Shown: positions 598 to 2,160, counted from the stretch's first letter. The stretch: 4,612 bases of DNA from a virus (IMGVR_UViG_2660237951_000007:1-4612); one strand, 5' to 3'. Made by a program: numbers and translations. Notes: generated by a model not told the origin, from the letters alone.

Positions 598-1650
598 TTA
601 TTTCCCCACCAGTTCACTTACCTCTTTCACCGTCTGATTAAACCGCTCTGACTCAAGTTCAACACCTAACGCCCGACGCCCCAGCGCCATTGCTGCTTTT
701 ATTGTGGAACCGGATCCCATAAAGAAATCAGCAACCAGATCACCAGGTCGACTACTGGCATTGATTATTTGCCGGAGCATATCCGCCGGTTTCTCGCACG
801 GATGTTTACCCGGGTAGAACTGAACGGGCTTATGCGTCCAGACATCGGTATAAGGCACGGAGACTGATACGGAGAAATAGCGCCGGAGAGATTTAAACTC
901 ATCCAGCAATTCAGAATATTTGCGATTCAGTGAATCATAAGATGCCACCAGCTGGTGGTGTGGTTGTTCCAGTTGTTGTTCCTGAAACTTCTCTGCCGCT
1001 ATACGGGAAAACAGTGCCTGTAACTTCCGATAGTCAGCCTCATTCGGCAACTGCCACTGACTGGCACCAAACCAGTGGGAAACCATATTTTTCTTACCTG
1101 TGGCTTCGGCAATTTGTTTTGCCGTTATACCCAGTTCGGCACGAGCATCCCTGAAATACGATATCAGCGGTGCCATTATGTGCTGTTTGAGTTCCCTTTC
1201 TTTTGCCGCATAGCCGTCACTTTTGCCGCGATATGGCCCCTGGTAATGTTCAGCAAACAGAACGCGCTCTGTGGCAGGAAAATATGCGCGCAGACTTTCT
1301 TTATTACACCCATTCCAACGTCCGGACGGCTTCGCCCAGATGATATGGTTAAGCACGTTGAAACGTTCACGCATCATGATCTCAATATCAGATGCCAGGC
1401 GATGCCCACAGAACAGGTAAAGGCTTCCGGCAGGTTTCAACACCCGCCAGAACTGGGCCAGACAGTGGTCCAGCCACTTAAGGTAATCTTCGTCCCCTTT
1501 CCACTGATTGTCCCAACCGTTAGGTTTCACCTTGAAGTAAGGCGGATCCGTAACAATAAGGTCGATGGTGTTATCTGGGAGGGTTGCGAGGTATTGCATG
1601 CAGTCAGCGTTGATAAGCTCAACACTGTTTATATTTACAGTATTTTTCAT
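598..1650 (-). CDS. DNA methyltransferase, beta-class N6-adenine/N4-cytosine family (DPPY motif; YhdJ-like), apparently orphan
   Basis: 350-aa ORF. Motif IV DPPY at residues 35-38 (plus coords 1537-1548) lies near the N-terminus and the AdoMet motif I FFMGSGST at residues 309-316 near the C-terminus; this IV-then-I order defines the beta group. N- and C-terminal blocks resemble E. coli YhdJ as I recall it (DLIVTDPPYF vs DLIFADPPYN; HPCEKPADMLRQIINASSRPGDLVADFFMGSGST vs [34 protein letters not shown]). No restriction endonuclease candidate is adjacent in the window. Confidence 0.88.
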   Translation of the reverse strand: MKNTVNINSVELINADCMQYLATLPDNTIDLIVTDPPYFKVKPNGWDNQWKGDEDYLKWLDHCLAQFWRVLKPAGSLYLFCGHRLASDIEIMMRERFNVLNHIIWAKPSGRWNGCNKESLRAYFPATERVLFAEHYQGPYRGKSDGYAAKERELKQHIMAPLISYFRDARAELGITAKQIAEATGKKNMVSHWFGASQWQLPNEADYRKLQALFSRIAAEKFQEQQLEQPHHQLVASYDSLNRKYSELLDEFKSLRRYFSVSVSVPYTDVWTHKPVQFYPGKHPCEKPADMLRQIINASSRPGDLVADFFMGSGSTIKAAMALGRRALGVELESERFNQTVKEVSELVGK

Positions 1651-1742
1651 AGATCCGTAAGCGTAACTCTGATAGGCTCACTATGCTTTTGCGCTAAAGC
1701 AGTGGGCCTTGGTTAGCTTGTGACCTGAAAGCATGAGCTAAT

Positions 1743-1773
1743 GGCTGGTTGGGTGCTACAACACCCACCAGCC
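1743..1773. repeat. Imperfect inverted repeat (12-bp arms, one bulged T, 6-nt spacer) in the intergenic region between the small ORF and the methyltransferase
   Basis: Plus strand GGCTGGTTGGGTG (1743-1755) ctacaa CACCCACCAGCC (1762-1773). The arms are reverse complements except for one extra T in the left arm. No U-tract follows on either strand, so it is not a canonical terminator. Confidence 0.55.
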
Positions 1774-1800
1774 GCCCATTTCCACAGCAGAATGCCCCCT

Positions 1801-1992
1801 TCAGTGGAGGCGTTTGTAACATCCAAACTGGTAATCTGATAACCCCGCCATAACCAGCTGCGTCAGGATGAGCTGGCATTTCTCTCGGCTTAGGTGCGTA
1901 TTCTGTGCAATTTCCCCAGCTGTCGCTGGTGAAGCGCTGAGTTCGTTAAAAACCGCTTTTGCTTCTTCTGTCATATAAGGTTGATTTTGCAT
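1801..1992 (-). CDS. Small (63 aa) winged-helix/HTH-like DNA-binding protein, family uncertain (PapI/FaeA-like pattern possible)
   Basis: ATG at 1992-1990 is preceded by AAGGGG (2005-2000) with a 7-nt spacer. The segment ATAGEIAQNTHLSREKCQLILTQLVMAGL has the helix-turn-recognition-helix spacing typical of small winged-helix regulators. The gene is co-oriented with and directly upstream of the methyltransferase gene. Confidence 0.55.
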   Translation of the reverse strand: MQNQPYMTEEAKAVFNELSASPATAGEIAQNTHLSREKCQLILTQLVMAGLSDYQFGCYKRLH

Positions 1993-2070: not shown

Positions 2071-2095
2071 TAAAAAAACCCCGCCGAGGCGAGGT
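2071..2095 (-). terminator. Promoter-proximal intrinsic terminator (tR'-like) between the Q-position gene and the cargo genes
   Basis: Minus-strand RNA CCUCGC-CUCG-GCGGGG (6-bp stem with one G-U pair and a tetraloop; plus coords 2079-2094) followed by seven U residues (plus 2072-2078). It lies about 30-55 nt downstream of the candidate promoter. Confidence 0.6.
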
Positions 2096-2103
2096 TAGAT
2101 ATA

Positions 2104-2160
2104 ATTATGACAAAATATAAAATTAGCTTCAAATATGGCTCATTTTGTTGCATTTTGCAA
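2104..2160 (-). promoter_or_regulatory. Candidate sigma70 late promoter (pR'-like) with downstream -10-like elements
   Basis: Minus-strand reading: TTGCAA (2160-2155), 17-nt spacer, CATATT (2137-2132). A second overlapping candidate is TTGAAG (2132-2127), 17-nt spacer, CATAAT (2109-2104). TATATT at 2119-2114 would fall at about +7 to +12 of the first promoter. The region is AT-rich and begins about 30 bp after the stop of the Q-position gene. Confidence 0.45.

Follow-up and report, generated by a model that had tools for sequence, protein, structure and literature searches.

Antisense RNAs of restriction-modification and type I toxin-antitoxin systems overlap the beginning of a gene whose mis-expression is toxic. 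Among phage RNAs, P22 sas, oop, 23as and sar have been listed as antisense RNAs (PMC13397905), while Mu-like prophages have been described that carry Com together with a non-specific adenine methylase in place of mom (PMC3299994). The methylase of phage 1720a-02 has furthermore been named as very similar to M.EcoGII, which methylates adenines non-specifically, stays silent in lysogens and is harmful if constitutively expressed (PMC5778455). Here we have analysed a 4,612-nt stretch of viral DNA (IMGVR_UViG_2660237951_000007:1-4612; hereafter the window), in which a gene for a methylase of this type is preceded by a conserved element of three hairpins, and we find that the pairing of this element is selected on the plus strand, antisense to the late mRNA.

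The window is a lambdoid late region with all of its genes on the minus strand. An antirepressor-like ORF comes first and a DUF968/HNH ORF second, followed by the antiterminator gene Q (2904-2191; Pfam PF06323), downstream of which lie a late-promoter-like site (2132-2104) and the intrinsic terminator tR' (2096-2077). Next are a small ORF encoding a 63-aa winged-helix protein (1992-1801, stop codon 1801-1803; phrog_331), a 150-nt spacer, the gene of a 350-aa beta-class N6/N4 DNA methyltransferase (1650-598, ATG 1648-1650; PF01555), a further intrinsic terminator (590-574) and, last, a lambda-S-type holin gene. The terminator at 574-590 has an annotated counterpart in SfV and Ayreon; being bracketed by terminators, the methylase is moron-cassette-like. 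We also observe that the terminator between the methylase stop and the holin overlaps an extended holin reading frame (574-617), and that transcription from the late promoter to tR' (2073-2150, minus strand) would yield a short sense RNA ending at the terminator. This latter stretch has a weak istR-like match (22 bits) and a likeness to the late-leader sRNAs 6S, StxS and PasD, and the equivalent region of a Rahnella locus gives an STnc100 match (43.9 bits).

The small winged-helix ORF, which has weak DprA_WH and TrmB matches, often stands directly upstream of the element, from Escherichia to Xenorhabdus, and is dispensable, being missing from many element-bearing loci (at least 12 lineages); an 83-aa Vibrio ORF looks similar to it by eye. 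Its stop codon lies in the loop of a hairpin (1794-1811, minus strand) that shows compensatory changes. On the minus strand, the stem is followed by a weak U-rich stretch in the window, and in relatives the hairpin is a clear sense-direction terminator; on the plus strand of the window, only GUUUGUAAC follows it.

The methyltransferase shares 80% identity with the methylase of 1720a-02, matches PF01555 over residues 29-341 and has the beta-class motif order DPPY, TRD, FxGxG; by this similarity and motif order, it is predicted to be an M.EcoGII-type promiscuous adenine methyltransferase. A helix-turn-helix-like stretch, LGITAKQIAEATGKKNMVSHWF, at residues ~170-195 (window ~1080-1150) is presumably part of the target-recognition domain. 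No Shine-Dalgarno sequence is found at normal spacing before the ATG, and synonymous sites are frozen across the first nine codons (1624-1650, minus strand), with zero synonymous entropy at codons 2, 4, 6, 7, 8 and 9 and ~1-2 bits at most later codons. These early codons contain an inverted repeat, ACUGU...ACAGU (1624-1641), as well as a motif, AAUACUGUA, that recurs in another locus (L217) at a non-coding position before a C5 methylase gene.

Hairpins in the spacer ahead of the methyltransferase gene

A reading of the window made from sequence only had singled out a 12-bp hairpin in the spacer, and its description of sequence, position and flanks agrees with ours. On the minus-strand RNA, positions 1773 to 1743 read GGCUGGUGGGUG-UUGUAG-CACCCA(A)CCAGCC, with 12 pairs, one bulged A and a 6-nt loop, starting 27 nt past the small-ORF stop and ending 92 nt ahead of the methyltransferase ATG. 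The hairpin, which we call P1, has no terminator U-tract, with the sense strand running on as AUUAGCUC and the antisense strand as GCCCAUUUCC; it lacks the combination of GC-rich hairpin and U-tract that marks an intrinsic terminator, and a terminator scan of the window makes no call there. RNA structure prediction folds the minus-strand 31-mer at -22.7 kcal/mol (z = -4.80; 0/200 shuffles as good) and P1 with its flanks at -26.1 kcal/mol (z = -4.16). The plus-strand form of P1 (1743-1773; GGCUGG-U-UGGGUG / CUACAA / CACCCACCAGCC) is almost as stable (-21.3 kcal/mol, z = -3.94). Across 47 homologous sequences, 92% of P1 cells are paired and 10 of the 12 pairs show compensatory double changes, bearing out the proposal that the hairpin is not incidental; by evolutionary criteria, as read from this alignment, P1 is functional.

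P1 does not stand alone, being one third of a larger conserved element of ~145 nt (1645-1790, plus strand). On the plus strand, the order is P3, P2, P1 and then a conserved single-stranded tail, CGCCCAUUU(U)CACA, making P1 the 3'-most hairpin. P3 (1675-1708, plus strand; GGCUCAC-UA-UGCUUU / UGCGCU / AAAGCA-GUGGGCC) shows compensatory changes in Stx2a-type phages, Chania, Vibrio and Cellvibrionaceae. P2 (1713-1741, plus strand; UUAGCUUGU / GACCUGAAAGC / AUGAGCUAA) consists of nine contiguous pairs, of which two are G·U; on the mRNA strand, these two become C·A and A·C mismatches. The tail (1774-1786; plus strand CGCCCAUUUCCACA, sense UGUGGAAAUGGGCG) is near-invariant in the alignments, and its GCCCA is able to pair alternatively with UGGGC of P3. 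The resulting helix, AUGGGC:GCCCAU, fits 46-47 of the 47 sequences but is almost invariant, with one compensatory change, in Tatumella. Another candidate pairing, GCUCAU:GUGAGC, was rejected, as it is not kept in the Morganellaceae or Rahnella sequences inspected.

We built a covariance model of the three hairpins, re-aligned the 47 sequences with it and scored covariation against 500 shuffles. Compensatory double changes occur in 21 of the 34 pairs of the element, including the 10 within P1, and sense-strand covariation is 0.247 against 0.100 in the shuffles, none of which (0/500) reaches the observed value; controls with slid partners pair at just 31-42%. The compensatory pairs and the shuffling result together indicate that the hairpin is a genuine, selected structure. 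A small conserved ORF in the spacer was considered and ruled out, since single-base indels run throughout the alignment, which marks the spacer as non-coding. Over the element in the window, Rfam 15 yields no family at E <= 1 apart from a chance-level P26 match (20 bits; gathering 36), and scans of nine divergent homologs together with HK620, HK022 and lambda likewise give no family match for the element; ARAGORN finds no tRNA or tmRNA genes in the window.

The strand under selection

Although the alignment was fitted to the sense-strand structure, so that any bias would disfavour an antisense result, the pattern of mismatches points to the other strand. Sense-strand cells that fail to pair are almost all A·C (100 A·C vs 6 G·U in P2, 66 vs 18 in P3), and the A·C positions differ among Enterobacteriaceae, Rahnella, Morganellaceae, Vibrio and Cellvibrionaceae. 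An A·C on the sense strand is a G·U on its complement, and this is the signature of selection on the antisense (plus) strand. For the same helices in the 47 sequences, 93.1% of cells are paired with a covariation of 0.318 when read antisense, compared with 84.1% and 0.247 when read sense, and 70 further pair types are seen antisense vs 50 sense. P2 is 97.4% paired antisense vs 75.1% sense, with compensatory changes in 7 of its 9 pairs; the lower stem of P3 is 90% paired antisense vs 78% sense, a conserved sense C·A there being U·G on the antisense strand.

Predicted stabilities follow the same direction. The antisense strand has the lower minimum free energy in 43 of the 47 homologs (mean -49.7 vs -44.5 kcal/mol for sense), and in the most divergent homologs, the gap is 13 to 24 kcal/mol, as in L164 (-56.6 vs -32.6 kcal/mol). 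Antisense and sense z-scores are -3.9 vs -1.5 in L164, -2.9 vs -1.1 in L183 and -6.05 vs -3.8 in L186; in the window itself the sense-strand fold is also significant (z = -2.5). Bit scores of the covariance models barely separate the strands in the seed clade, where the window's element scores 151 with the sense model (R1) and 151.6 with the antisense model (R2); a mirrored model is unable to tell the strands apart there because, in models of this kind, A·C comes to count as a permitted pair. In a held-out clade, covariance-model scores show a small antisense advantage. The pairing of the element is selected on the plus strand, opposite the gene that it overlaps, as is characteristic of a cis-antisense RNA.

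Distribution across methylase, holin and com-like loci

The spacer ahead of the methylase is conserved over its full length among phages of Escherichia, Shigella, Klebsiella, Citrobacter, Morganella, Providencia and Hafnia. A search with a hairpin-flank pattern retrieved at least 120 IMG/VR viral contigs with the element, and wherever the sequence extended far enough, the element stood 89-91 nt from the methylase, which was always the same gene. P1 is kept in these contigs as well as across Enterobacterales, and the conservation among related phages that was asked of the hairpin is thus present. Scanning one genome per species with a methylase alignment extended the leader to Rahnella, Ewingella, Yersinia, Serratia, Chania, Tatumella, Rosenbergiella, Acerihabitans, Proteus, Providencia and Plesiomonas; in these further genera, the hairpin arms are completely different in sequence and their complementarity is kept. 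Named carriers of the element include SfV, HK620, HK022, mEp460, cdtI and the Stx2a/2c/2d/2e-converting phages.

Megablast homology of many phages stops at window position 1790, which indicates that, in this clade, it is the methylase and not the small ORF with which the hairpin travels; together with the fixed 89-91 nt spacing, this makes a role in methyltransferase control plausible. Such a role had been among those proposed for the hairpin, and it is supported by the fixed spacing and co-travel within the clade. The strand then assumed for it was that of the mRNA; the asymmetry described above and an adjacent antisense terminator in relatives point to the opposite one. The hairpin probably does bear on methylase expression, via the opposite strand and within the larger element.

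Several loci depart from this arrangement. One IMG/VR contig (L077) carries the leader-plus-methylase cassette twice, the copies lying ~3 kb apart, and in Erwinia endophytica (L140), a methylase 78% identical to that of the window is preceded by unrelated sequence swapped in for the leader directly after a terminator. Xenorhabdus and Photorhabdus loci (L148, L153, L155-L157, L162, L179) have a shorter, different leader before the same methylase, with a P1-like hairpin within GGUGAA/UUCACC that the covariance models do not match. Enterobacterial-type methylase loci with the element also occur under the labels Chryseobacterium (L139) and Martelella alba (L183); these odd taxon labels probably reflect contamination.

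That the element might be specific to the M.EcoGII-type methylase was ruled out by model matches ahead of holin genes and of a C5 methylase. The model identified four IMG/VR contigs of this holin type, and a clade-specific 19-mer then brought ~36 contigs; the clade is independent, having had no part in model building. In these loci, the element comes after Q and the late terminator and is directly followed by genes for holins of several families, or for a C5-cytosine methylase and then a holin, at varying distances from the element to the holin or C5 methylase start codons. BLAST of the holin-type element further gives hits in HK620, HK022, HK633, HK544, HK542 and Sf101, where it separates the annotated late terminator from S; the corresponding regions of HK620 and HK022 are ~16346-16490 and ~37070-37240. 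Lambda still has P1 and P2 between tR' and S (~45014-45155, corresponding to L371 1215-1356; 24.6 bits), and the element is absent from P22. Read antisense, the holin-type clade is 97.7% paired in P1 and 99.7% in P2, with many G·U pairs and compensatory changes in 8 of the 12 P1 pairs.

In most holin-type contigs, as well as in HK620 and HK022, P1 on the antisense strand is followed by a conserved tail, CGCCCAUUUUCACGAAG, and then by a canonical intrinsic terminator (for example, GAAGCCCGCCAUUGAGCGGG-UUUUCUUUUUU). A terminator scanner calls it in L229 and L266, and it is seen also in HK022 and in the fold of HK620, for which the antisense strand reaches z = -5.07 vs -1.82 for the sense strand. 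Covariation is seen in its stem and a conserved U-tract in most of the ~36 contigs; together with the sense-direction late terminator, it forms a tail-to-tail pair, an arrangement expected of two convergent transcription units. In lambda, where P1 (~45031-45061) is followed by GUUUUG, this antisense terminator of HK022 and HK620 is missing. The window and the other methylase-type loci show no good antisense terminator after P1, and the hairpin directly upstream of the element in methylase-type loci is sense-directed, possibly bidirectional, or absent. No convincing antisense sigma-70 promoter was found in any lineage examined, the candidates there being weak and positionally non-conserved.

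Within the interval between element and holin of L229, L241, L266 and L369-L371, we additionally observe an inverted repeat of ~10-11 bp, GGAUUUGUUCA ... UGAACAAAUCC, with an AT-rich loop (variants include GGAUCUGUUC), after which a short hairpin is predicted to sequester the Shine-Dalgarno region of the holin gene. From lambda to metagenomic phages, and across different holin families, this pair of structures is conserved.

Weaker matches to the element come from one Vibrio genome (44.8 bits) and one of Cellvibrionaceae (33 bits). In both, it runs up to the AUG of a zinc-finger ORF resembling Mu Com, with the methylase next; in Vibrio, this ORF gives a match to the PHROG "gpCom control of modification". 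With the element standing before a holin, a C5 methylase or a Com-like ORF, what is constant is its position in the late leader and not any one gene. Com-like zinc-finger ORFs precede distant methylase homologs (43-57% identity) more widely, as in L172 (1352-1468), L186 (1326-1553), L180, L181, L184 and L185, from Vibrio, Cellvibrionaceae, Chromatiales, Methylobacter and Marinomonas; several of these ORFs overlap the methylase start, whereas one stops ~35 nt short of it. Among these Com-preceded loci, only those of Vibrio and Cellvibrionaceae carry the RNA element, upstream of com.

A candidate antisense RNA in the late leader and its precedents

The reading that we put forward, at about even confidence, is that the element would be a cis-antisense RNA guarding the late-gene leader. 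It would form the body of a small RNA transcribed convergently with the late promoter, and this RNA would pair with the first late gene over its leader and translation-initiation region. Transcripts that read through the terminator into toxic late genes (methylase, holin) would thereby be kept silent until Q-driven transcription swamps the antisense RNA, whether by a block of translation, cleavage of the duplex or transcriptional interference. In the window, the complementarity would cover the methyltransferase start, with nucleotide-level constraint reaching codons 2-9. The lack of a Shine-Dalgarno sequence, the frozen codons and the recurrence of AAUACUGUA in L217 are in keeping with control at the start region; a sense-strand leader would also suit the frozen codons and the fixed spacing to the first start codon. 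More tentatively, the element may define a previously unrecognised antisense sRNA family, spread over many lambdoid phages and Vibrio/Cellvibrionaceae prophages and left as a remnant in lambda, that acts as a late-gene safety catch setting a threshold between read-through and Q-driven transcription. A search of the literature for an antisense RNA between the late terminator and a holin or methylase gene returned nothing relevant.

Alternatively, the three hairpins could fold in the late mRNA as a sense-strand cis-regulatory leader that controls translation of the first late gene. Such a leader might act as a translation-inhibition structure, as a protein operator (e.g., for autoregulation by an RNA-binding methylase) or as a ligand sensor, and might be a functional analog of Mu com-mom, with Com-controlled promiscuous methylases as precedent (PMC3299994). 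The 89-91 nt to the first AUG, the element ending at the com-like AUG in Vibrio and Cellvibrionaceae, the methylase start without a Shine-Dalgarno sequence and the frozen codons 2-9 would all suit it, as would the window's significant sense fold and the YUNR-like sequence with which most sense-strand P1 loops start. We nevertheless consider it unlikely, since sense mismatches that are almost exclusively A·C, at clade-dependent positions, point to selection on the complementary strand, and the sense folds of L164 and L183 are no better than those of shuffled sequence. Nor does it account for the same element before unrelated genes (holins, the C5 methylase) at differing distances from their start codons, or give a role to the antisense terminator that abuts P1. 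The strand asymmetry would also suit an element acting as single-stranded DNA, as a primosome or priming signal or as an ssDNA-folded promoter, since the late genes have the selected strand as their template and DNA hairpins tolerate G·T wobble; three-hairpin priming signals and ssDNA promoters beside anti-restriction methylases occur in other replicons. Lambdoid phages, however, have no obligatory ssDNA entry stage, the stems hold no -35 or -10 sequences, an RNA signal, the intrinsic terminator with its U-tract, follows P1 on this strand in HK620-type phages, and the tightly kept position of the element with respect to start codons speaks for a role in gene expression, so that we regard action as DNA as improbable.

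A further possibility, which we rate as quite improbable, is a tandem series of late terminators that Q-modified polymerase passes through, with P1 as the remnant or a variant of a secondary, sense-direction member. The GUUUUG after the homologous P1 of lambda and the constant adjacency of the element to terminators speak for it, but CCAU and no U-tract follows P1 in the window and nearly all homologs, the terminator scan is silent, and P2, P3, the conserved junctions and the antisense asymmetry would go unexplained. The roles that the sequence-only reading had offered besides methyltransferase control, namely an RNase III processing site, a 3' stabiliser of the small-ORF message and a duplex-DNA operator, here for the small winged-helix protein, have in their favour a GC-rich, stable stem and the winged-helix ORF directly upstream in many loci, and are taken together very improbable. 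An RNase III site typically spans roughly 20 bp of dsRNA, or about two helical turns, and is cleaved in vivo in an rnc-dependent manner, whereas P1, at 12 pairs with one bulge, is shorter than typical substrates. Against a stabiliser, the element occurs in at least 12 lineages lacking the small ORF and before holin and C5 methylase genes, and the separate hairpin at 1794-1811 already ends the small-ORF message. An operator calls for conserved half-sites and equivalent strands; the arms are instead unrelated in Rahnella, Yersinia, Serratia, Vibrio and others, changing freely while pairing is kept, and the asymmetry of wobbles and mismatches reflects selection on one strand. An operator for the upstream winged-helix protein in particular was ruled out by this variation and by the frequent absence of the ORF.

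If the antisense reading is correct, the lambdoid late switch, among the best-studied of gene circuits and carried by phages that also bear Shiga toxin genes, would have an overlooked regulatory layer, in the form of an antisense RNA sitting where terminator read-through enters the lysis and DNA-modification genes. It would explain why a methylase that is toxic when constitutive is silent in lysogens and would predict a tunable threshold for spontaneous lysis, with HK620, HK022 and SfV offering a defined and easily mutated element. It would also add a widespread RNA family that Rfam 15 scans do not detect. The case would further show that the strand on which a conserved hairpin acts is not to be assumed from the orientation of neighbouring genes.

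Among known RNAs, those closest in location are lambda 6S, StxS, PasD, STnc100 and P22E, which occupy the same neighbourhood, downstream of Q in the late leader; indeed, STnc100 is detected adjoining the element in the Rahnella locus. They are sense transcripts ending at tR', whereas the element is located past tR' and has its structure on the opposite strand. Identity with the Pas sRNAs or P22E was ruled out, those being sense RNAs that end upstream, and P22 being without the element. Mu com-mom provides a parallel in a late, host-toxic DNA-modification enzyme of broad specificity under post-transcriptional control by its leader. It differs in that the window has no Com-like ORF, its upstream ORF being the winged-helix protein, and in that the Vibrio element lies upstream of com and not at the com-mom junction. 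Derivation from the Mu com-mom leader was ruled out, as the covariance model finds no match in that region of Mu. The antisense RNAs of restriction-modification and type I toxin-antitoxin systems share the logic proposed here, while the element has neither a restriction partner nor a small toxin peptide and is found before holin genes as well.

In kind, the element would resemble the phage cis-antisense RNAs, namely lambda oop, the paQ anti-Q RNA, P22 sar and 23as. It has no sequence or Rfam relationship to them and is set apart by its place between the late terminator and the first late gene. Those RNAs end at intrinsic terminators and are convergent with a major phage promoter; like them, the element would be a small structured RNA lying opposite a phage gene that is harmful if untimely.
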